Source of the DNA: Candidatus Poriferihabitaceae bacterium
Lineage (GTDB): Bacteria > Pseudomonadota > Gammaproteobacteria > Arenicellales > Poriferihabitantaceae
Length of the DNA stretch: 64,000 bases
Reading direction: 5' to 3'
Assembly: GCA_965237485.1 (NCBI GenBank)
Contig: CBDEFQ010000006.1
Coordinates: 273,506 to 337,505 of the forward strand
The notes below the pieces were generated by a model. The model saw nothing but the letters and a program-made list of their open reading frames with translations, was not told where the DNA came from and did no database searches. A program made the translations under genes and the position numbers. Below are positions 21,360-54,946 of the stretch, one piece after another (position 1 is the stretch's first letter; every line of letters starts with the position of its first letter).

Positions 21360-21689
21360 ATGAGTCAAAAAGATATTCAACACATTGATGACAATGGCAC
21401 TGGCTTAGTTGTAGAAACCGCTAAGCCAAAGCTTAAAAAACCGCCGATGTTTAAAGTGGTGATGCTTAATGACGACTATACACCCATGGAGTTTGTAATT
21501 TTGGTGTTAGAAAACTTGTTCCGTTTAGATCACGAACTCGCTATGCAAATTATGCTCAACGTACATCAGAAGGGCAAAGGTGTATGCGGGGTATATCCGC
21601 ATGAAGTGGCTGAAACTAAAGTCGCACAAGTGTCGGAACTCGCCCGCTCTAATGAGCACCCATTGCAATGCACGCTTGAGGAGGCCTAG
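21360..21689 (+). CDS. clpS: ATP-dependent Clp protease adaptor ClpS
   Basis: 109 aa with the pattern [19 protein letters not shown]...VH.KG. Confidence 0.93.
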
Positions 21690-21826
21690 TGGTCCTTCAA
21701 TTTAATAATTGCGGGTCCAGAGCCCAAGAGCCGGTGCAGTGCAAGGCGCAGCTCGTAGGCAATGGTTGTTCCATTGTCAAGAGCTGCAACGCTGAATCCG
21801 TAATTATCAGATTGTAGGACCACTAG
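21686..21826. repeat. palindromic (MITE-like) element filling the clpS-clpA intercistronic gap
   Basis: 11-bp perfect termini: CTAGTGGTCCT (21686-21696) and AGGACCACTAG (21816-21826). The arms align for about 50 bp around a central CAATGG-ttgtt-CCATTG, and the left arm carries an extra stretch of about 24 nt. There is only one copy in this window. Confidence 0.6.
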
Positions 21827-37229: not shown

Positions 37230-37558
37230 GTAACTTCTCAATAACCCGTGGCAAAGCTGGCGCGTTCCATAATGATATCTGGCAGAGGATCAATATGTTG
37301 CTCACCGATACCAAGCCGATGGGTCAGGTAGTGCCAGAACGATATATCCAGTTTTCGGCAGGTCTTTTTCAAACTGGCAAACGTGTCCCGACACTGCTGG
37401 CCAGCATCGCTGCGGGTGGAGCCACTCACTTTTCGTTTTTTCACGTAATCGCGAATGTCTGTTTCACTGCCATTGGTGTGTAACGGAATATCTGGTCGAT
37501 CTAGCACCAACAGTCATTCTGCTTGATTCGCATGGATTCGTTTGAGCGTCTGATTTAA

Positions 37559-37721
37559 CCTAGATAAATCAGTTAAAACACGAAAGTCCATGCAAGCTCT
37601 TGATGCACCTAGCAAAATCAAAAAAAACCTTATCACCAATAAGGTGACCGCGACTTTTTTGATTTCACTATGCACTTCAATTGCTTACATGTCTTTTCCG
37701 CGTTTAACTGATTTATCTAGG
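37559..37721. mobile_element. 163-bp MITE (family 1), copy A
   Basis: TIRs CCTAGATAAATCAGTTAAA.. / ..TTTAACTGATTTATCTAGG. 5-bp TSD TTTAA (37554-37558 and 37722-37726). By eye it is identical to 54481-54643. Confidence 0.88.
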
Positions 37722-38879
37722 TTTAATGTTTGGTAGCATGTCTGTTGAGTGAAGATTTCATCGAAACGCTGCTCAAGTATTTTACGTTGGTTCTCGCAAG
37801 GCTGGGTTTTATACTCTTTAACGCCCGATAAAAGCACCAGACTTGGTCGCGTATTTTAGCAATGCCCTGCCGGTGTCCCTCGTTCAGCGGTATCAACTTA
37901 TGGATTAAGTGCTCGGTGTGTATCCAACACAAGGCATGAGCCAAAATGTTAAATTGCCCTGCATCATCACTGACGACAGCGATGTCATCACACAGACCAT
38001 GATGCAAAATACTACCAAGTAATGCCCCTTCGGTGGTGATACGTCGGTGACGTGCCTTAATGATCAACAGGCTATCGAGCATTTCAAGCCAGTCATCCTC
38101 GTTGGCAATACGGCGTTCCCGGTGCTCAGTTACAGCGGCTAAGGCTTGCTTTGGCAATCCATGTTGTTGCCTATAATTCAACGCACTTTGACTCAAACGA
38201 TAATCCGTATTGCCAGCCCTTAATAGCGGTAGGAAGTTAATTCGACTTTTTGATTGAGTACTTTTAAACCACGCAAACAAGTCATTACCAATGTGCGTTA
38301 CATAGCCATTTTTGCCCTGATGGCGAGCACCACTATCGTCCACGGTCACGTAAGACGATGCGCTCAGAGCAACGCTTAGTAACGCCTCTTTCTCAGCATG
38401 AAAGGGCTCTTTAGCACTGATCAGTATTGGGTTAATTTGTCCCGAAGAAATATCAATTCCCCACTCTCGCAACTGTTCCAACAAGAGTGGTTGCGTGGTT
38501 TGACAATGATGATATTGATAGAGAATATAACTGACCAGACGAGGCCCATAATGTCGCCCTGCCACGGATGTCGGTAACTGGCCTTTGAGCTTTTTATTGT
38601 CTGGCGTTACCCAATGCGCTAAACGATAGCGGGTGGTATGAACCTTGATAAGCAAATCTTGCACTACAAAATCCCGATAGCCTTTAAAGCGAGAACCTTC
38701 GGGCACGGACTTCGCTGGTTCAATAACCAGATTTAGGTCAATTGACAGCCTTGGTGTTTTCTTTGCCTTGTTCGACCCAGCTCGCTGCTTAGGTTTGTCG
38801 CTAGAAGATGAACGTTTTGGCTCTGTTTTCTTATCCATATTACCACCCTTAAAAGTAGGCTGCCTCTTCTGCCCCTTAA

Positions 38880-40056
38880 GGGCTTGTCGGATAATTAATA
38901 GAATACGTGAGATAATATGGGCTGATTCTAGTCAGCCTGCAATTTTGAGCAAACGTCATCAAAGCCAACTGTTCCTAACCTTAGATTCTCTGGTTAGCTC
39001 TGAACATCCCTACCGTAAACTCGATGAGCTATTATGTTTTGGTGCATTGAGTAAACCCTTCTCTAAAATATATGCCACCCGTGGCCCTAAAGGCCGAGGT
39101 GTTGAGTTCGGCTTACGTGCCTTGGTGCTTCAGTTCATGGAAGATTTAAGTGATAGAGAAATGGAGCGATACTTATCAGAGAATCTGGCCGCTAAGTGGT
39201 TTTGTGATTCAGGACTGGAACAGAGCACTCCTGATCATAGTTACTTTGGTGATTTTCGCTCACGCATTGGAACCAGGGGTATGATGAATTTATTTGACCG
39301 TGTTCGGAGCGGGTTAGTTTCAATGGGCTTAGTACGAGAAGTATTCACATTTGTCGATGCCAGCCAGTTGGTCAGTAAGCTAACCACTTGGGATGATAGA
39401 GATAAGGCGATAAAGATGGGATTAGAGGAGTTCAACAATAAGACAGTTGATAAAGTTGCGGCGGACAAGCAAGCACGGTTTGGGTGCAAGGGAAATAGCA
39501 AATATTGGTATGGTTACAAAGAGCATGCATCAGTGGATATGCAAAGTGGCTTGATCAATAAAATAGCGACCACCTCGGCTGAGGTAACGGATGCAAGCGG
39601 CTTAAAGCATGTTTGCCCTAAGTCGGGTGCTGTTTATGCGGACAAGGGTTATTGCGTGAGCCCGGCCAAAACCACGCTCAGGCGCAACGGTTGCCATGAT
39701 GCAACAATCAAGAAGAACAATATGCATGGCAAGAATAGAGACAAAGACCGTTGGATTAGCAAAATTCGTTCACCATATGAGCGAGTGTTTGCTCATCGCA
39801 ATAAGCGAGTTCGTTATAAAGGGTTGGCTAAAGTCCAGTTCCAAGTTGGAATCAGGGGCTTATGTTTTAACCTTAAGCGATTAATGGCATTGGGAGTTGA
39901 ACGAGTTGAATTGGTGCCGGCCTAGGGATAGATCCGTCTATTGGTGGCAAAATGGCTGCTAATAGACGGTTTATTGCACAAAAAACGCGTTGCTGAGCAA
40001 ACTAAAAGCGACTTCGGCGAAAACCCTGTTTGAAATTGTATTAACCGACGAGCCCC
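38880..40056 (+). mobile_element. IS5-family insertion sequence (1177 bp) inside the IS66 transposase gene
   Basis: IRL GGGCTTGTCGGATAATTAAT and IRR (reverse complement) GGGGCTCGTCGGTTAATACA. It is flanked by TTAA (38876-38879 and 40057-60), which fits the IS5 YTAR target. Removing the IS and one TTAA restores the IS66 reading frame (INILKGQKRQP). Confidence 0.88.
38945..39925 (+). CDS. IS5-family DDE transposase
   Basis: The tracked ORF (from 38768) reads in from flanking DNA. The likely start is TTG 38945 (MSKRHQSQLFLTLDSLVSSEHPYRKLDELL, DUF772-type N-terminus). The DDE_Tnp_1-type C-terminus includes YADKGY and RSPYERVFAH. Confidence 0.8.
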   Translation: MSKRHQSQLFLTLDSLVSSEHPYRKLDELLCFGALSKPFSKIYATRGPKGRGVEFGLRALVLQFMEDLSDREMERYLSENLAAKWFCDSGLEQSTPDHSYFGDFRSRIGTRGMMNLFDRVRSGLVSMGLVREVFTFVDASQLVSKLTTWDDRDKAIKMGLEEFNNKTVDKVAADKQARFGCKGNSKYWYGYKEHASVDMQSGLINKIATTSAEVTDASGLKHVCPKSGAVYADKGYCVSPAKTTLRRNGCHDATIKKNNMHGKNRDKDRWISKIRSPYERVFAHRNKRVRYKGLAKVQFQVGIRGLCFNLKRLMALGVERVELVPA

Positions 40057-40484
40057 TTAAGGATATTGATTTCATCTTTAAGCAATGCTATTTCTTCGTC
40101 CTGTTGTTGAACTCGCACCAACAGCTGCTCCACTAGCACCCGCAACATTTTTACTGCGGGGGTTTGTTCTTGTTCAGGAATGTCGGGAATAGAGGGTAGC
40201 TTACTCAAGGTCTTAAACGTCCGTTAACTGGATAGACCTTAGTGTACCATCGGTTTTGAAAGTCCAATTTTGCCTTCTCAACTGCGCCACAACGAACGTT
40301 AAGAAGACACCCCTGAACGTTCCTTAAGCGATCTTTGTTATTAGCGTAAAGGTGCCTACAACCACCCTGGAACTCAACCTAAATCGAGTCACTCGACCAC
40401 GTTGAATTACCTTCCTTTTAGCGTAAAACCCGGTCAAGAAATATTTTGTTTTATTTTACCTGCCACGGGTTATTGAGAAGTTAC

Positions 40485-40750
40485 TAAAAAGGTTCATCAA
40501 CGTGTTTAGCGGTCTTTGGGATACGCAGATTGAGCGTACCGGCTTGCGTATCGATACGCTTATCTTGGTAGCCATTGGCAAACCCTGGCCGGTCTTGACT
40601 ATGCTCATAGTGTGATGCGCCTGGAAACGGCTCTCTTTCAATCTTCATCGCCTCATTGAGCAGTGCGGTGAGCACGGGGCGCATGGCATCGGGGCCTTCT
40701 GAGATGTGTGTTCCACTACTACGTCAAATACGTTATTGTTTGATTGGGTC
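40485..40750 (-). pseudogene. IS256-family transposase, N-terminal fragment (copy 2)
   Basis: MRPVLTALLNEAMKIEREPFPGASHYEHSQDRPGFANGYQDKRIDTQAGTLNLRIPKTAKHVDEPF ends exactly at the IS66 TSD. A candidate upstream ATG at about 40750 (MTQSNNNVFDV) is out of frame with it. Confidence 0.75.
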
Positions 40751-40870
40751 ATTTGGGTGTCTCCAGTATTTTAATTGCTTAAAACAGGGAACGCACAAAT
40801 GGCTCAACTTACAAGACACCAAGATAGAAAATTTGAATAAATCGGAGTTAAAGGGGTCAGACCCCTTTAA

Positions 40871-41019
40871 CTCATCGAGTTTACGGTAGGGATGTTCAGA
40901 GCTAACCAGAGAATCTAAGGTTAGGAACAGTTGGCTTTGATGACGTTTGCTCAAAATTGCAGGCTGACTAGAATCAGCCCATATTATCTCACGTATTCTA
41001 TTAATTATCCGACAAGCCC
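40871..41019 (-). mobile_element. truncated left end (about 149 bp) of a second IS5-family copy
   Basis: This is the reverse complement of 38880-39028 (IRL through ...PYRKLDE). Identity stops abruptly at 40871. Confidence 0.85.
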
Positions 41020-41468
41020 ATAATACATTCGTATCTGCTACAGACAAAGCTACGGTGCAACGAGAGGCGCAGCTAATGTTGGGGATATATGTTCTTTTGG
41101 GTTGCTTGTCATGGTATTACCAGAACAATACATTGTTGTTTGTGTGGATATTGCCTTTGTTAATAGGCCAGCCGTTTTTGCGCTTATTTTTATTGGCAGA
41201 ACATGAGGGGTGCGCGAACTCGAACAATATGTTTGAAAATACCCGCACGACACTAAGTAATTTTGCCGTGCGCTTTATCACTTGGAATATGCCTTACCAT
41301 ACAGAGCATCATGTTTTTCCTGCGGCACCGTTTCACCAATTACCTAAGTTACATGAGTTTACTAAACTGCATTTGCAAGTCGTCGCACCCGGTTATGGCA
41401 GGTATCACTTAGCTTGGATAAAGGCCCGACTTTTAGGTAAGGCCTCGGGGGAGTCTGAAAATAGCTGA
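41020..41468 (+). pseudogene. fatty-acid desaturase, 5'-truncated
   Basis: Only the C-terminal part is present (LAEHEGC..., third His box MPYHTEHHVFP). The reading frame is open right up to the IS5 end at 41019, and there is no N-terminal half. Confidence 0.75.
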
Positions 41469-41474
41469 TTAATA

Positions 41475-41614
41475 GAGACTGCAGCATAACTACTGCGCTC
41501 GATAATACGGCGTTAAAAAGTGGCTCAAAATGCTCATTTACTAAGCATAAACTGCGCTTTTTCACCCCTTCTTGCCTTGTCTTATCTTTGCTCGTGACGT
41601 TATGCTGCAGTCTC
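41475..41614. mobile_element. 140-bp MITE (family 2), copy B
   Basis: TIRs GAGACTGCAGCATAAC / GTTATGCTGCAGTCTC. It is flanked by TTAATA (41469-41474 and 41615-41620). It is the inverse-orientation homologue of 6421-6559. Confidence 0.8.
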
Positions 41615-42604
41615 TTAATAGTAATCAGGTTGCTTGCGATGCAAACGTGGGCGTTGTCGACGAGGTTTACGCCTAACGCCCACCCTTTGCTCGCGCCAGG
41701 CAATGATAATCCCGGAAAGGATGATGATAGAGATACCAAGATAGGCGGTGGTGGACGGCTGTTCGTTAAAGAAAATGATGCCGCCTACAGTCACTAGGGG
41801 TAAATAAATATATTCTAGCGGGGCCAACAAGCTAGCGGGTGCGTTTTGATAAGCGATGGCCAAGAAAAAATGCATCAATATACTGCTCACGCCAATGCCA
41901 ACAAGCACGAGCAGCACCAGCGGCTCGGGTGCTAATGGTGGGTGGGTTATAAAATTGCTGACTTCAGAGTCAAGCGGTTGGTAGGCAAACCATATTAAAC
42001 CAATTAAGCCGATAACGGCAAATAATACGCTCAGCCAAAAGGACAAGGCCAAAGGATTTTCGTCTTGGCAATATTTACGTGTGTAGGTATTGGTTAGGGC
42101 GTAAGAAAAGCCACAGCCCAGTGGCCAAAATATTTTAGGGTCAAACTGCGTGGAACCTGGTTGTAATACTAACAGTACTCCTGCAAAACCAATAAGCGCG
42201 CTTAGAATACGCCATATACCCACTCGTTCCTTTAGTATAAAGCGTCCAAAAAATACGGTAAATAAGGGGCTACTAAACAAGCCCGCGGCTACGATCGCAA
42301 TGGGCAATAAACCGATGGCTATGAAGTAGGTTAAAAACGACACAGCCATTAGCAAACTACGAATAAAAACTACGAAGCCGTTCCTGGTCTTTAGGGAGTG
42401 GTCTTTGTTGGCAATAAGCACCACCGCCGCCAATACCGAAGCGCCAATCACCGAACGCATCAGCTGCACCTGCCAAATAGAAACTTGATCGCTAAGCCAC
42501 TTGGTCGCTAGATCACTACCGCTAGCGATTGAGATACCTGCCATCACCGCGCACATCGCAAATAATGCTCTATCTACTCTGGTTCCGGAGGTTTCATTGG
42601 CCAT
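41615..42604 (-). CDS. EamA/DMT-family transporter
   Basis: 329 aa with about 10 TM segments in two EamA-like halves and a basic C-terminal tail. Confidence 0.8.
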   Translation of the reverse strand: MANETSGTRVDRALFAMCAVMAGISIASGSDLATKWLSDQVSIWQVQLMRSVIGASVLAAVVLIANKDHSLKTRNGFVVFIRSLLMAVSFLTYFIAIGLLPIAIVAAGLFSSPLFTVFFGRFILKERVGIWRILSALIGFAGVLLVLQPGSTQFDPKIFWPLGCGFSYALTNTYTRKYCQDENPLALSFWLSVLFAVIGLIGLIWFAYQPLDSEVSNFITHPPLAPEPLVLLVLVGIGVSSILMHFFLAIAYQNAPASLLAPLEYIYLPLVTVGGIIFFNEQPSTTAYLGISIIILSGIIIAWREQRVGVRRKPRRQRPRLHRKQPDYY

Positions 42605-42892: not shown

Positions 42893-44275
42893 CCGGCAGT
42901 CTATTCCAATACAGGAATGATACCGAGAAGTTGATTGTCATTTCTGTTCAAAGATGTTTTTAAAGAGTTTAGTTTTTTCCTCATTGAGTTGTTTTGCTAC
43001 CTCATTATCAGTCATCTGATAAACGATATCGTCAAGCATTGTAAACGAGATGTGAGTTTTAAGATATGACTGTGCATTGGTCAACGATTTGAGTTTTTCA
43101 TAAGGCGTCATCATGTTTCGATATGGATAGGTTTTGACTTGTTTTCCTTTGTTGTTAGTGCTGATCTGTGGGAAGAAACAAGGTCGGTGATAATTCAAAT
43201 AAGGGTTAAGAAAGTCGGTGGCAAATTGATTAATCTCAGGCGCATATTTTTGCGGGATATGCATGAAGCCAAGATGCTTGCGCACGATGGCCCCATTGTT
43301 GCACTCAACTAAGGCATTGTCGTTACGGTGTCTAGCCCTGGATTTGGTCAACTCGATTAATAGCTTATTCAACAATCGCACCACCGATTGGTTAATGTAT
43401 TCACTGCCATTATCGGCATGAAAGCCTTTAATCACAAAGGGGAATTGCTCTAGCATTTGAGTGAGAATAGGCATCAAGAATGGCTCTGATATTTTCTGTG
43501 TAGAAGACACGACTTCAAACGGGGTGATCTCATCAACGGCGTTGATATGATAGACCCCTTTAACCTTGTCCTTATCGCCCTGATGCACTGTATCTACACG
43601 GCTATAGCCAGGTTGACCTTCTGGCTGTGGCTTACGTCTTTGGCCGATAGAAGAAGGCTTGGAATGTGTCTTTTCAAAGTGACGGCGATTGTTCTGGTAG
43701 GGTTTAGATCGGCGTAGATTGTATAGATGAGAAACCGAGATACGTGCCAGGTTGGCATACTCAGTTTGCTCATAGACAACTAAGGCGCGCTCACAGAGTT
43801 TCTTAGTGGCATGGCCTGATAACGTACCGTGGAGTTCATCCATATCTGCTAGAAGCTTAATGTCTTGATTGCTATAGCGTCTAGCAAAGCCCCTTGTGGC
43901 ACGATGTCGCCACTGGATTCTACCGTGCTTGAGATAGCTGGCAGCCAGGCGTTTCACTTGCACATAAGAGTAACCGCTGATGCGTGTGATATAACGCAGC
44001 ACAAGACTCTTATCGGCTCGACCCAGTTTGCTGTATTTGAAACGCATTAAGGTGCGTTTGATGAAATCATAGCGATTGCGTTTACCGTCGATTGCCAGAT
44101 CGATTTCATCAGTGCCTTGTAGCAACAAGCGTGCCTTATCAAGGGTATCTATATGGTGGTCATTCATAATGGTATTCATTCACCATCATGAACAGAAATT
44201 AGATTAGTTCGGTATCATTTCCGATTAGAATCAGTCCCTTCGCTCAGTATCATTTCATGTTGGACAAGACTCCGG
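42893..44275 (-). mobile_element. insertion sequence with an rve (integrase-core) transposase, possibly ISNCY/IS1202-like
   Basis: Imperfect inverted repeats CCGGCAGTCTATTCCAATACAGGAATGATACCGAG (42893-) and, in reverse complement, CCGGAGTCTTGTCCAACATGAAATGATACTGAG (-44275). I could not resolve a TSD. Confidence 0.65.
42938..44179 (-). CDS. DDE transposase with integrase-core domain
   Basis: 413 aa with an rve-type pattern (VDTVHQGD...HADNGSEYIN...NDNALVECNNG). Family assignment is uncertain. Confidence 0.8.
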   Translation of the reverse strand: MNTIMNDHHIDTLDKARLLLQGTDEIDLAIDGKRNRYDFIKRTLMRFKYSKLGRADKSLVLRYITRISGYSYVQVKRLAASYLKHGRIQWRHRATRGFARRYSNQDIKLLADMDELHGTLSGHATKKLCERALVVYEQTEYANLARISVSHLYNLRRSKPYQNNRRHFEKTHSKPSSIGQRRKPQPEGQPGYSRVDTVHQGDKDKVKGVYHINAVDEITPFEVVSSTQKISEPFLMPILTQMLEQFPFVIKGFHADNGSEYINQSVVRLLNKLLIELTKSRARHRNDNALVECNNGAIVRKHLGFMHIPQKYAPEINQFATDFLNPYLNYHRPCFFPQISTNNKGKQVKTYPYRNMMTPYEKLKSLTNAQSYLKTHISFTMLDDIVYQMTDNEVAKQLNEEKTKLFKNIFEQK

Positions 44276-51562: not shown

Positions 51563-51632
51563 GCAGAGGTGCCAGAGTGGTCGAATGGGCTTGCCTGGAG
51601 TAAGTGTGTCTTTACGGGCATCGGGGGTTCGA
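51563..51632 (+). pseudogene. truncated tRNA-Ser copy 1
   Basis: It lacks the 3' T-stem and acceptor strand. It has G2C in the acceptor stem and a 2-nt deletion in the anticodon loop (CCTGGAGTAAG versus CCTGGAAAGTAAG). Confidence 0.85.
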
Positions 51633-51736
51633 CAAAATCGTCTGGAACGATTTTACACGAGCAAAGCGAGCCCGAAGGGTGAAACCCAGGAAGGGTTGAA
51701 TAATCCCACCCGCAAGGGGAGGGGTGAGAACACAAC

Positions 51737-51808
51737 GGAGAGGTGCCAGAGTGGTCGAATGGGCTTGCCTGGAAAGTAAGTGTGTCTTTACGGACACCGG
51801 GGGTTCGA
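51737..51808 (+). pseudogene. truncated tRNA-Ser copy 2
   Basis: 72 nt, matching the intact gene except one substitution in the variable arm (GGACACC versus GGGCACC). It lacks the 3' 18 nt. Confidence 0.85.
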
Positions 51809-51912
51809 CAAAATCGTCTGGAACGATTTTGCACGAGCAAAGCGAGCCCGCAGGGTGAGACCCAGGATGGGTTGAATAATCCCGCCCGCAATGGGGGGGG
51901 TGAGAACACAAC

Positions 51913-52004
<92 letters not shown>

Positions 52005-52416
52005 ATTTATTTATAAAAACAAAGACTTACGTTTTTGTGCTTTCATTTTATAGGGAATTATATACCTAAATCCGTGAAGCCAATTTCACTAACCACGCTT
52101 CTCAAGTTCCCACTTTTGACTTAACTGCTCTTTAGAAGGCTTTTTATTTTCATATTTAACCTTGTTTTCAGGAAGACTAAATAGAGTTTCTTTGATTGCT
52201 TTCTCGATCTGTTTTTTAGTTGGGTGTTTCATAATTACGTGATTTATAGGCCTGCATTATGTAACAAGTTCGCCATGTGCGTCTTTAACTTTATTCAGCT
52301 TGTTGAACAGCGTGCAAAAATGAACAGTTTCGTGGGTGATCAGCGTACAAAACTGAACACCTTTATTGTTAACTGTCTCGGAGCCATTAATCCGAGGAAA
52401 CTGTCAGGTGATTTGT

Positions 52417-53916
52417 ATGCCTATATGTACCAAGATACGACGTTTGTGTTTAGTAGAAGGTCGCAAAGTAAGCGAGGTGTCGCGTGAATTCAATTTATCA
52501 CGCACCACTATTTATAAATATTTAAACAACGCGCCAAGCGAACCTGAATATCAGCGGTCGGTGCCAATAGTCTGTCCGAAGCTGGATAAGTTCAAACCTC
52601 AGTTGATCAATTTGCTTGAAGTGGACGCAGCTCGCTCAGTGCGAGAAAGACGTAATGCAGTTCAACTGTATGAAGAGATTGAGTTGCAAGGGTATCGAGG
52701 GGCTTATGACAGCGTTCAACGGTTTGTCAAAGCGTGGAAGGATCACTCGCGGTCATGTATTAAACAAGCATTTGTGCCATTGGTTTTTGCACCAGGTGAA
52801 GCCTGTCAGTTTGATTGGTCACATGAACAAGTCATTCTGGGTGGGTTTGGTGTCAAGATCAAACTAGCCCACTTTCGTTTATGTCATTCGCGTAAATCAT
52901 ATCTTAGGGCCTATCCCAGAGAAACACAGGAGAGGGTGTTTGATGCACATATTCGGGCGTTTGATTTCTTTGAGGGCTTACCTCAGAAGATGATATACGA
53001 TCACCCTAAGACCATAGTCAGTGCATTGTTTAAGGGTAAGCGGCGTGAGTTTAATCGCCGCTTTCTAAGCCGGATGAATCATTATCTGATTGAACCGATT
53101 GCCTGTACACCGGCAGCGGGTTGGGAGAAAGGCCAGGTTGAACGTCAGGTCGGTGTTATGCGCCAAAGGCTGTTTGTTCCACGGGTGCGCTTTGCTGATT
53201 TAGATGAATTAAACCAATGGCTGGAGCAACGTTGTGCTCGACTTGGTGAACGCCCACACCCGACTGACAAATCAAGACTAATTGATGAAGTGTTTGCCGA
53301 GGAGCAGCCGAGCTTACGTCCCGCGATGGTAGCCTTTGATGGATATTATGAGCGTTTGGCGCGTGTGCATAAAACCTGTGTGGTGCACTACGACCGCAAT
53401 CAATACTCCGTACCCTGTCGGTATGTTGACCAAGCTGTTTCTGTTAGAGCCTATGCAGATAGGATTAAAGTCGTGGTTGACGATGTGGAAGTGACTTCAC
53501 ATGCTCGCTGTTTCGGTCGTCATCAAATGATCTTTGATCCTTGGCATTATCTGCCCGTACTGGAGATTAAACCTGGCGCATTACGCAATGGCGCACCGTT
53601 TGTTGATTGGGATTTACCCAAGGTGCTGCTAACACTCAAAAAACAGTACCTCAAACGTGATGGCGGTGACCGAGAGTTTGTACAATTGTTACTATTGATT
53701 CACCAGCATGGCTTGGAAACAGTCACGGTGGCCTGTGAGCGGGCATTAGATGCCAATACGACTCAGCTATCAGTCATTACCAATTTGGTGCATCGGTTAA
53801 CGGAACCTGATTCGGCCCAAGTGATGACAATTACCAATGCGCCTGTATTAGCTGTCCCCTCGGCAGCGAACGTGACCCGCTATGACCCGCTGTGCGCGGA
53901 GGTGAGCCATGCTTGA
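52417..53916 (+). CDS. istA: IS21-family transposase IstA
   Basis: The ORF is open from 52366. ATG at 52417 gives the HTH N-terminus MPICTKIRRLCLVEGRKVSEVSREFNLSRTTIYKYL. The rve-type core includes CQFDWSHE. Confidence 0.85.
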   Translation: MPICTKIRRLCLVEGRKVSEVSREFNLSRTTIYKYLNNAPSEPEYQRSVPIVCPKLDKFKPQLINLLEVDAARSVRERRNAVQLYEEIELQGYRGAYDSVQRFVKAWKDHSRSCIKQAFVPLVFAPGEACQFDWSHEQVILGGFGVKIKLAHFRLCHSRKSYLRAYPRETQERVFDAHIRAFDFFEGLPQKMIYDHPKTIVSALFKGKRREFNRRFLSRMNHYLIEPIACTPAAGWEKGQVERQVGVMRQRLFVPRVRFADLDELNQWLEQRCARLGERPHPTDKSRLIDEVFAEEQPSLRPAMVAFDGYYERLARVHKTCVVHYDRNQYSVPCRYVDQAVSVRAYADRIKVVVDDVEVTSHARCFGRHQMIFDPWHYLPVLEIKPGALRNGAPFVDWDLPKVLLTLKKQYLKRDGGDREFVQLLLLIHQHGLETVTVACERALDANTTQLSVITNLVHRLTEPDSAQVMTITNAPVLAVPSAANVTRYDPLCAEVSHA

Positions 53917-54807
53917 ACTTGTTGATGATCTTAAAGCCCTTAAACTACACGGTACGGCACCATGCTTACCTGAGTTGATAGATTCGCCTCGTTCTAAAGT
54001 AACGTTGCAATCTGGGTTAATTAAATTGATGGATGCCGAGCGAACGGACCGAGAAGTGAGGTGGCTAAATTCCCTCATCACCGTGATTTACAGCAATTTG
54101 ACTTTACCCAGAGCGAAGTTGAACCAGCGCTCATCGAGGATTTGTCTCAGGCTGACTATATGGACAGAGCCCATAACCTCATCTTTGTCGGTGGCACTGG
54201 AACAGGCAAAACCCATTTAGCTACGGCCTTAGGCATTAAAGCCATTCATTCAGGTCATCGGGTTCGGTTTTACAATGTGGTGGACCTGGTTAATCTGCTG
54301 ATCAAAGAACAGCAGGATGAGAAGCAGGGGCGGCTAGCACGAATTATGCAACCGTTAGATGCGGTGATATTCGATGAGCTGGGATATTTACCCTTCCCCG
54401 CATCGGGTGGCGCACTATTATTCCACCTGATCAGCAAGCTATACGAGAAAACCTCCATCGTGTTTACCACCAAGCTTAATCCTAGATAAATCAGTTAAAA
54501 CACGAAAGTCCATGCAAGCTCTTGATGCACCTAGCAAAATCAAAAAAAACCTTATCACCAATAAGGTGACCGCGACTTTTTTGATTTCACTATGCACTTC
54601 AATTGCTTACATGTCTTTTCCGCGTTTAACTGATTTATCTAGGTTAATGTCAGTGAATGGGTGCAGGTATTTGGCGACGAGAAAATGACCACGGCTTTGC
54701 TCGACAGAGTGACTCATCATTGCTCAATTATTGAAACGGGTAACAACTCATATCGATTCAAGCAGTCTAGTGCTAAAGCAAAGCTCAAGACTGTCACTAA
54801 AAAATAA
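53909..54807 (+). pseudogene. istB: IS21-family helper ATPase IstB, frameshifted and MITE-disrupted
   Basis: The N-terminal frame (MLELVDDLKALKLHG...AERTDREVR) switches at about 54058 to the frame with AKFPHHRDLQQFDF...GGTGTGKTHLA. About 8 codons usually found between these motifs appear to be missing. The MITE splits TTKLN / [25 protein letters not shown]. Confidence 0.8.
54481..54643. mobile_element. 163-bp MITE (family 1), copy B
   Basis: Same sequence and orientation as 37559-37721. 5-bp TSD TTAAT (54476-54480 and 54644-54648). Confidence 0.88.
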
Positions 54808-54946
54808 CATCGCAAGAAAGCAGGATTGATTCATCAACTCAAGTTTCGCTACGCTTCACTTGAGTTGATGATAAAGAAATATTATTGTATTTAATTGTTC
54901 AGTTTTACTCGCTGACAGGTGTCCAGTTTTAAACGCTGATTGACAA

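Follow-up and report, generated by a model that had tools for sequence, protein, structure and literature searches.

A 163-bp sequence is present in two identical copies in a 64,000-nt stretch of DNA from a Candidatus Poriferihabitaceae bacterium (contig CBDEFQ010000006.1, positions 273,506 to 337,505; the whole stretch is hereafter called the window). The sequence is best explained as a miniature inverted-repeat transposable element (MITE) mobilised by a transposase encoded at another locus of the genome, and we assign this explanation a probability of roughly 80%. A MITE had been proposed in an earlier note written from the letters of the window. That proposal is supported by the terminal inverted repeats (TIRs), the 5-bp target-site duplications, the different flanks of the two copies, the empty sites in paralogues of the target genes, and further copies in the same assembly. 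In the proposed mechanism, the transposase would recognise the 19-bp TIRs and make cuts in the target that are offset by 5 bp, and the 5-bp direct repeats would arise when the gaps are repaired. The targets would be A/T-only pentamers, most of them containing TTAA. Members of the family lie almost exclusively within other mobile elements, and both copies in the window lie in genes of insertion sequences (ISs).

Structure and insertion sites of the two copies

Copy A (37559..37721, plus strand) and copy B (54481..54643, plus strand) are 163 nt each and were 100% identical by sequence reading and by script. The pair was also recovered by an independent repeat search of the window. Copy A begins with the left TIR (37559..37577, plus strand; CCTAGATAAATCAGTTAAA) and ends with the right TIR (37703..37721, minus strand), which complements the left repeat perfectly. 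It is flanked by TTTAA on both sides (37554..37558 and 37722..37726). Copy B is flanked by TTAAT (54476..54480 and 54644..54648). Hence, the claim of two identical 163-bp copies, each with its own 5-bp duplication, was confirmed. The TIR is a perfect 19-mer, CCTAGATAAATCAGTTAAA, that occurs four times in the window against 0.02 occurrences expected from shuffles, and the termini begin with CCTAGATAAATCAG (CCTAGAT...). No further TIR-like sequence was found in the window with up to three mismatches allowed, and no further element-like sequence was found there by sensitive blastn.

The match between the two loci ends exactly at the left boundary of the element. On the right side, it extends by 2 nt, which are the TT common to both duplications. 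Beyond the element, the flanks of copies A and B are unrelated, so neither copy lies within a larger duplicated block, an arrangement that the earlier note, for the case of only two existing copies, had named as fatal to the MITE interpretation. A 4-bp TTAA duplication was considered and rejected, because copies A and B would then need different element boundaries.

The element is self-complementary at 70% over its whole length. In single-stranded form, it adopts a single extended hairpin (-39.1 kcal/mol, z = -9.7), and its minus strand contains a weak terminator-like stem with a T-run. Its G+C content is 36.8%, compared with 46.5% for the window. The sole open frame comprises 54 codons without a family match, and no transposase is encoded. 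Together with one duplication, the element adds 163 + 5 = 168 bp, equal to 56 codons, and one frame of this unit is stop-free; consequently, gene callers make open reading frames (ORFs) across the MITE.

Copy A is inserted in an IS66-family transposase pseudogene on the minus strand (37238..38838), inside the DDE_Tnp_IS66 domain. The insertion point comes after the codon that corresponds to residue 436 in P0415, a full-length paralogue of 540 aa, and, relative to the minus-strand gene, the element lies in the orientation that reads LDKSVKRGKDM*. P0415 matched the Pfam model DDE_Tnp_IS66 with 50.1 bits (cut-off 23.1) and scored 110 bits on the NCBIfam IS66 model, below its cut-off of 180; the IS66-like fragments of the window alone reached no Pfam model. 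Simple excision of copy A does not restore a single IS66-like ORF, because the gene also carries an independent 1-nt frameshift and a nonsense codon. One A has been lost from an A-run near 37818, approximately 90 nt upstream of the MITE, and a TGA codon is present at 37514-37516, downstream of the MITE. These two lesions rule out imprecise insertion as the cause of the broken ORF. The gene is therefore not inactivated by the MITE alone. When the MITE and one TTTAA were removed, the distant homologues P0247-P0249 aligned unbroken across the junction; at the intact locus, their alignment resumed only beyond the element. The paralogues P0415, P0419, P0420, P0411, P0401, and P0405 read ...CYQTLNQTLKRIHAN... 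(QTLNQTLKR) at this position, i.e., their site is empty. The 5' end of the window gene is lost beside an IS5/IS1182-like element (38876-41023, 2,148 bp), which adjoins and truncates it. The TIRs of this IS5/IS1182-like element are unusually long (156 nt, 99% complementary).

Copy B is inserted in the istB gene (53909..54807, plus strand) of an IS21-family element (52340..54915, plus strand), which consists of istA and the MITE-bearing istB and is bounded by 20-nt imperfect inverted repeats. The MITE cuts IstB to ...TTKLNPR*, and the truncated product is P0177 in the protein collection, encoded on a contig of 854,641 bp that is thereby recognised as the one containing the window. An additional frameshift is present in this istB near 54040-54070. 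After removal of copy B and one TTAAT, IstB matched the Pfam model IstB_IS21 in a single stretch with 217 bits, and the junction ...TTKLNVSEWVQ... is the same reading as in the uninterrupted paralogues. Thirteen IstB paralogues from the same assembly (P0126-P0138) are 97-99% identical and all uninterrupted. Copy B seems to have inserted directly, since the MITE is missing from all 13 paralogues examined. The matches of P0415 and of the excised IstB also bear out the earlier assignment of the two targets to an IS66-type tnp and an IS21 istB.

Further copies, target choice, and nesting in other insertion sequences

Copies beyond the window are known from protein translations only, not from DNA. 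A protein search with the translated MITE returned P0123, P0124, and P0125, which are encoded on contigs of 1,444,552 and 348,342 bp. P0123 reads MNTII, then the element, then IMNDHHIDTL..., in an IS481-like context with a deduced duplication of ATTAT. Its flank is the start of the IS481-like gene of the window, which begins with MNTIMNDHHIDTL (ATG AAT ACC ATT ATG). The corresponding target in the window is the unoccupied ATTAT at 44166..44170 (minus strand), covering codons 4-5 of the gene (MNTI/MNDHH). P0123 and P0430 carry the MITE at this site in opposite orientations; thus, the IS481-like site was struck twice independently. A second insertion of the CTAGATAAA type in P0123 was considered and rejected, because its "...RYDF/MLDK..." is TTGGACAAG from the IS481-like end sequence. 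In P0124, the MITE lies outside an IS256-family element, 3 nt from its end, with a deduced duplication of ATHAA. P0125 represents a variant of the MITE with 5 of 44 residues changed, and its duplication, also ATHAA, was deduced from the right flank only.

Further copies came from reading the proteins grouped in the IS66-like and IS481-like clusters, and the resulting counts are lower bounds. The site of copy A is occupied in P0246, P0397, P0402 (upstream side), P0408, P0410, and P0417 (downstream side), always in the orientation of copy A. Accordingly, five or more IS66-like copies contain the MITE at this site, and the contigs that bear them are 1,444,552, 575,117, and 854,641 bp long. A second IS66-like site, TTAAT at 37904..37908 (minus strand), is unoccupied in the window and filled in P0404 (...HTERLI/LDKSVKRGKDM*). 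Empty sites were matched among the IstB, IS66-like, and IS481-like paralogues. From the translated-MITE and paralogue searches together, a conservative total is at least about 11 MITE loci in the assembly, and the actual figure is likely to be larger.

Copy A was probably carried to its present position as a passenger of an IS66-like element, because at least five IS66-like copies share both the site and the orientation. The earlier note had taken the identity of the two copies as a sign of recent mobilisation. The identity itself is real, but taken alone it is no proof that the element was newly inserted at A, since at least five paralogues have it at the corresponding IS66 site.

A sister MITE family was recognised in four IS66-like paralogues (P0396, P0399, P0402, and P0405), in which GSRF/KGY is split by an in-frame insert of 56 residues. 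The insert, NLENSVERKK...STEFSRF, has 54 codons, as in the MITE. It shares 45% amino-acid identity with the minus-frame translation of the MITE (tblastn E = 4e-11). The sister family has a TTTAA duplication and a deduced TIR of about CCTAGAAAACTCAGTT, and it sits in the N-terminal part of the IS66-like paralogues. The equivalent target in the IS66-like gene of the window is the unoccupied TTTAA at 38684..38688 (minus strand). In-frame read-through was seen for the MITE in P0123 and for the sister element in P0405.

The seven duplications are all A/T-only: TTTAA twice, TTAAT twice, ATTAT once, and ATHAA twice. TTAA is contained in five or six of the seven. Among the duplications of the MITE, TTTAA at copy A and TTAAT at copy B were read from DNA; ATTAT, the second TTAAT, and both ATHAA were deduced from codons. 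The preference for TTWAW-type targets suggested earlier is thereby supported and sharpened.

Five copies were found without reference to ISs, and four of them lie in or beside one (binomial P = 0.003). The target pentamers are not enriched in IS DNA: 16% of them fall in it, and IS DNA makes up 15% of the window. The nesting is therefore not accounted for by sequence availability. More probable causes are landing sites that are tolerated and hitch-hiking; active targeting of IS DNA may also take place. Insertions of the MITE in host genes would be lost, and those in the very numerous IS copies would be tolerated. The MITE would then persist mainly inside other ISs, as such insertions cost the host nothing, and the lodged copies would multiply whenever the carrier IS transposes.

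The IS load of the assembly is extreme. At 90% identity, the cluster of IS481-like proteins has 54 members and the two IS66-like clusters have 27 and 11 members. At least 13 IstB variants are present, and the IS copies are spread over at least eight contigs. Contigs of 1,444,552, 864,981, 854,641, 575,117, 348,342, 106,560, 76,815, 65,945, and 51,834 bp are among those of the assembly. Among the IS66-like paralogues, the A-run frameshift, the TGA nonsense codon, the MITE (family 1), and the sister MITE (family 2) occur in nearly all combinations. This mosaic pattern points either to repeated gain and loss or to exchange between IS copies by recombination or gene conversion; the common homopolymer frameshifts could be long-read assembly errors instead.

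The transposase and alternative explanations

The transposase families in the window are IS256, IS66, IS5/IS1182, IS481-like, and IS21 only, and no IS1380-family gene is present there. The ends of the window ISs match the MITE terminus at just 2-6 of 15 positions, which confirms what the earlier note had said about them. A candidate family was suggested by the pairing of a CCTAGA... terminus with a 5-bp AT-rich duplication, and reference elements were compared. The left end of ISEcp1 is CCTAGATTCTACGT, and this IS generates 5-bp AT-rich repeats (PMC6061673). In the sequence of plasmid pC15-1a, the ends of ISEcp1 were confirmed as CCTAGATTCTACGT and CCTAAATTCCACGT (CCTAGAT.../CCTAAAT...). The termini of IS1678 and ISSsu5 are CCTGAATAATTCATA (CCTGAAT...), and a 5-bp repeat, GATAG, stands on either side of IS1678. 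ISBdi2, ISSp1, and a Nostoc IS1380-family element start with CCCG..., and the repeat of ISBdi2 is 4 bp (CTAG). A CC(T) start and 4-5-bp repeats are thus found in every IS1380-family element with definable ends; IS1247 and IS1380A, whose ends were not definable by the inverted-repeat scan, were left out of the comparison. The MITE terminus matches IS1678 at 10 of 15 positions and ISEcp1 at 8 of 15, and its first seven bases are those of the ISEcp1 left end.

On the strength of these termini and of the 5-bp AT-rich duplications, the ISEcp1/IS1678 branch of the IS1380 family fits best, and the partner transposase may belong to it, a placement that we regard as tentative. The MITE shares with ISEcp1, IS1678, and ISSsu5 the terminal consensus CCT(A/G)(G/A)AT and 5-bp duplications, which are AT-rich for ISEcp1. 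Members of this branch are approximately 1.66 kb long and encode a transposase, whereas the MITE has 163 bp and encodes none. Their TIRs are about 14-15 bp, whereas those of the MITE are perfect over 19 bp and the element is palindromic over its whole length. The resemblance is below the near-identity that normally ties a MITE to its parent IS.

Several points weigh against the explanation as a whole. A transposase-encoding element with the ends of the MITE was not found, the DNA-level search having covered the window. The likeness to IS1380 members is short (seven contiguous bases for ISEcp1, 10 of 15 for IS1678), and the comparison drew on a handful of reference elements, with other families that generate 5-bp repeats outside the sequence comparison. 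For the copies outside the window, the DNA identity and the exact duplications were deduced, including the third codon base in two cases. The 348,342-bp contig was assigned to the same organism by assumption.

IS1380, a bacterial relative of the piggyBac superfamily, has served as its outgroup (PMC10813416). The eukaryotic piggyBac elements resemble the MITE in the C-rich starts of their TIRs and in their preference for TTAA, which is contained in most of the MITE duplications. However, piggyBac duplicates exactly 4 bp (TTAA), whereas the MITE duplicates 5 bp and has used ATTAT, a target without TTAA. The TTAA bias of the MITE is suggestive in the light of this link and is not evidence for it. 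A far-reaching version of the argument would make the MITE and its sister the first MITE lineage of the IS1380/piggyBac superfamily. Such a lineage would have TTAA-centred targets and a 168-bp stop-free in-frame module. It would accumulate specifically in the transposase genes of other ISs, as a parasite of other parasites, inactivating or remodelling their transposases and being replicated by them afterwards; the mosaicism could then stem from precise excision. We consider this version quite unlikely.

A transposase from outside the IS1380 family could move the MITE, for example one of the Tn3 family, as for TIMEs, of IS1634, or of ISAba11-like IS701 elements (IS4-related, with 5-bp repeats). 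No partner was found in the window, and the likeness of the MITE TIR to IS1380 members is limited, both of which leave room for this proposal. TIMEs, described in Pseudomonas, are non-autonomous and also enter AT-rich DNA with duplications of 5-6 bp (PMC4133298). Nevertheless, TIMEs have inverted repeats of approximately 38 bp that are conserved with the ends of Tn3-family elements (PMC4133298), whereas the TIRs of the MITE are 19 bp and start with CCTAG. By these features, the MITE is not a TIME. The IS1380-type CC(T) start and 4-5-bp repeats fit the MITE, and the IS ends of the window do not match it. Movement by a transposase of another family is therefore rather unlikely in our assessment.

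In a second alternative, the MITE is immobile, its copies have spread only as cargo of ISs or by segmental duplication, and nothing on recent activity can be read from the match between copies A and B. The presence of the MITE at one site and in one orientation in at least five IS66-like copies is what such passive spread would leave, and the mosaic lesions of the IS66-like paralogues suggest recombination among copies. However, four IS families that are not related to one another harbour MITE copies, each with a 5-bp repeat of its own, the IS481-like site is filled in both orientations, and the insertion of copy B is present in 0 of 13 IstB paralogues. Moreover, identity across the full length of the element extends to four copies, namely A, B, and two others. 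Spread as cargo alone is thus improbable.

A host-selected structured repeat, either a palindromic regulatory or terminator unit or a REP/PATE-type element of a single-strand transposase, would suit the very stable hairpin and the terminator-like stem described above, but it is highly improbable in view of the 5-bp repeat and perfect TIRs of each copy, the location of copies within genes of other mobile elements in either orientation and not at gene ends, and the Rfam result, which consisted only of plant miRNA hairpin models far below threshold (42 bits vs a gathering score of 211). Single-strand elements (IS200/IS605/RAYT-type) make no target duplications. REP and PATE elements lack duplications and have sub-terminal hairpins, and the MITE does not belong to them.

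Relation to known repeats and other features of the window

Scans for the exact TIR gave seven loci in species-representative genomes, six in JGI metagenomes, and none in the IMG/VR viral collection. All of these matches were single, without a second arm, and did not extend past 19-25 nt, and their number was about that expected by chance. One of them, L006, was considered as an IS end and rejected, because it sits between skp and fabZ. BLASTN with the element or its end gave no meaningful match in plasmid or phage collections. At the gathering threshold, Rfam reported only tRNA-Ser in the window and left the MITE unmatched; the sub-threshold miRNA models are taken as a generic long-hairpin effect. 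The TIR string had no match in open-access full text, and no paper tying a MITE to IS1380 was found in the open-access literature. Accordingly, the element appears to represent a lineage-restricted family that is unrecorded but belongs to a very familiar class, ISfinder being outside the searched resources.

Correia elements, RUP, ERIC, and the Rickettsia palindromic elements are small, palindromic, and multi-copy, as is the MITE. The Rickettsia palindromic elements further share with it an insertion unit that is a multiple of three, a stop-free frame, and in-frame read-through. None of these repeats showed sequence similarity to the MITE in Rfam. The classical repeats lie in intergenic regions or host genes, whereas the MITE is located almost only inside other ISs.

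The MITE provides a clean, internally controlled case of nested mobile DNA amid massive IS expansion. A single assembly offers occupied as well as empty sites, a target that was hit on two occasions, and a multiplied composite of IS plus MITE. The near-exclusive nesting in ISs, the twice-used target, the in-frame stop-free design, and the possible link to IS1380 are notable, and none of them overturns current understanding. If the IS1380 link were true, the MITE would be a non-autonomous derivative for a family that is important in the capture of antibiotic-resistance genes (ISEcp1), and its many natural target sites could be used to define the target rule of that family. Elements of this kind also break assemblies and yield spurious small ORFs; several database "proteins" mentioned here are translations of the MITE.

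The window is chromosomal and carries genes for PEP synthase and RNase E/G, fab genes, the ccm operon, uvrA, ssb, and a sarcosine oxidase gene. UvrA comparisons indicate an uncultured gammaproteobacterium: related strains (P0002, P0003, and P0122) have UvrA proteins that are 89-91% identical, and the named relatives, Acidiferrobacteraceae and Spongiihabitans, stand at about 70% identity. Two other small inverted-repeat units were observed in it. A 142-bp element at 41474-41615, between a desaturase fragment and an EamA gene, is bordered by TAAT at either end and has inverted ends that are perfect over 17 bp (AGAGACTGCAGCATAAC); it may be a second, unrelated MITE. A 141-bp unit at 21686-21826, just upstream of a Clp ATPase gene, has 35-nt imperfect inverted arms and CTAG at its start and end; it could be a small inverted-repeat element or a structured leader. 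A tandem duplication of 176 bp (95% identical) occupies 51599-51950, and each copy ends in the 5' part of tRNA-Ser(GGA). The full tRNA-Ser(GGA) (51913-52002) arises only from the second copy, and the IS21 element starts approximately 340 bp downstream. In a relative (L008; UvrA 89% identical), the gene order is EamA, HlyU, GMC oxidoreductase, and UvrA. The HlyU and GMC genes are absent from the window, where the gap is held by the IS481-like element (42938-44179, minus strand).

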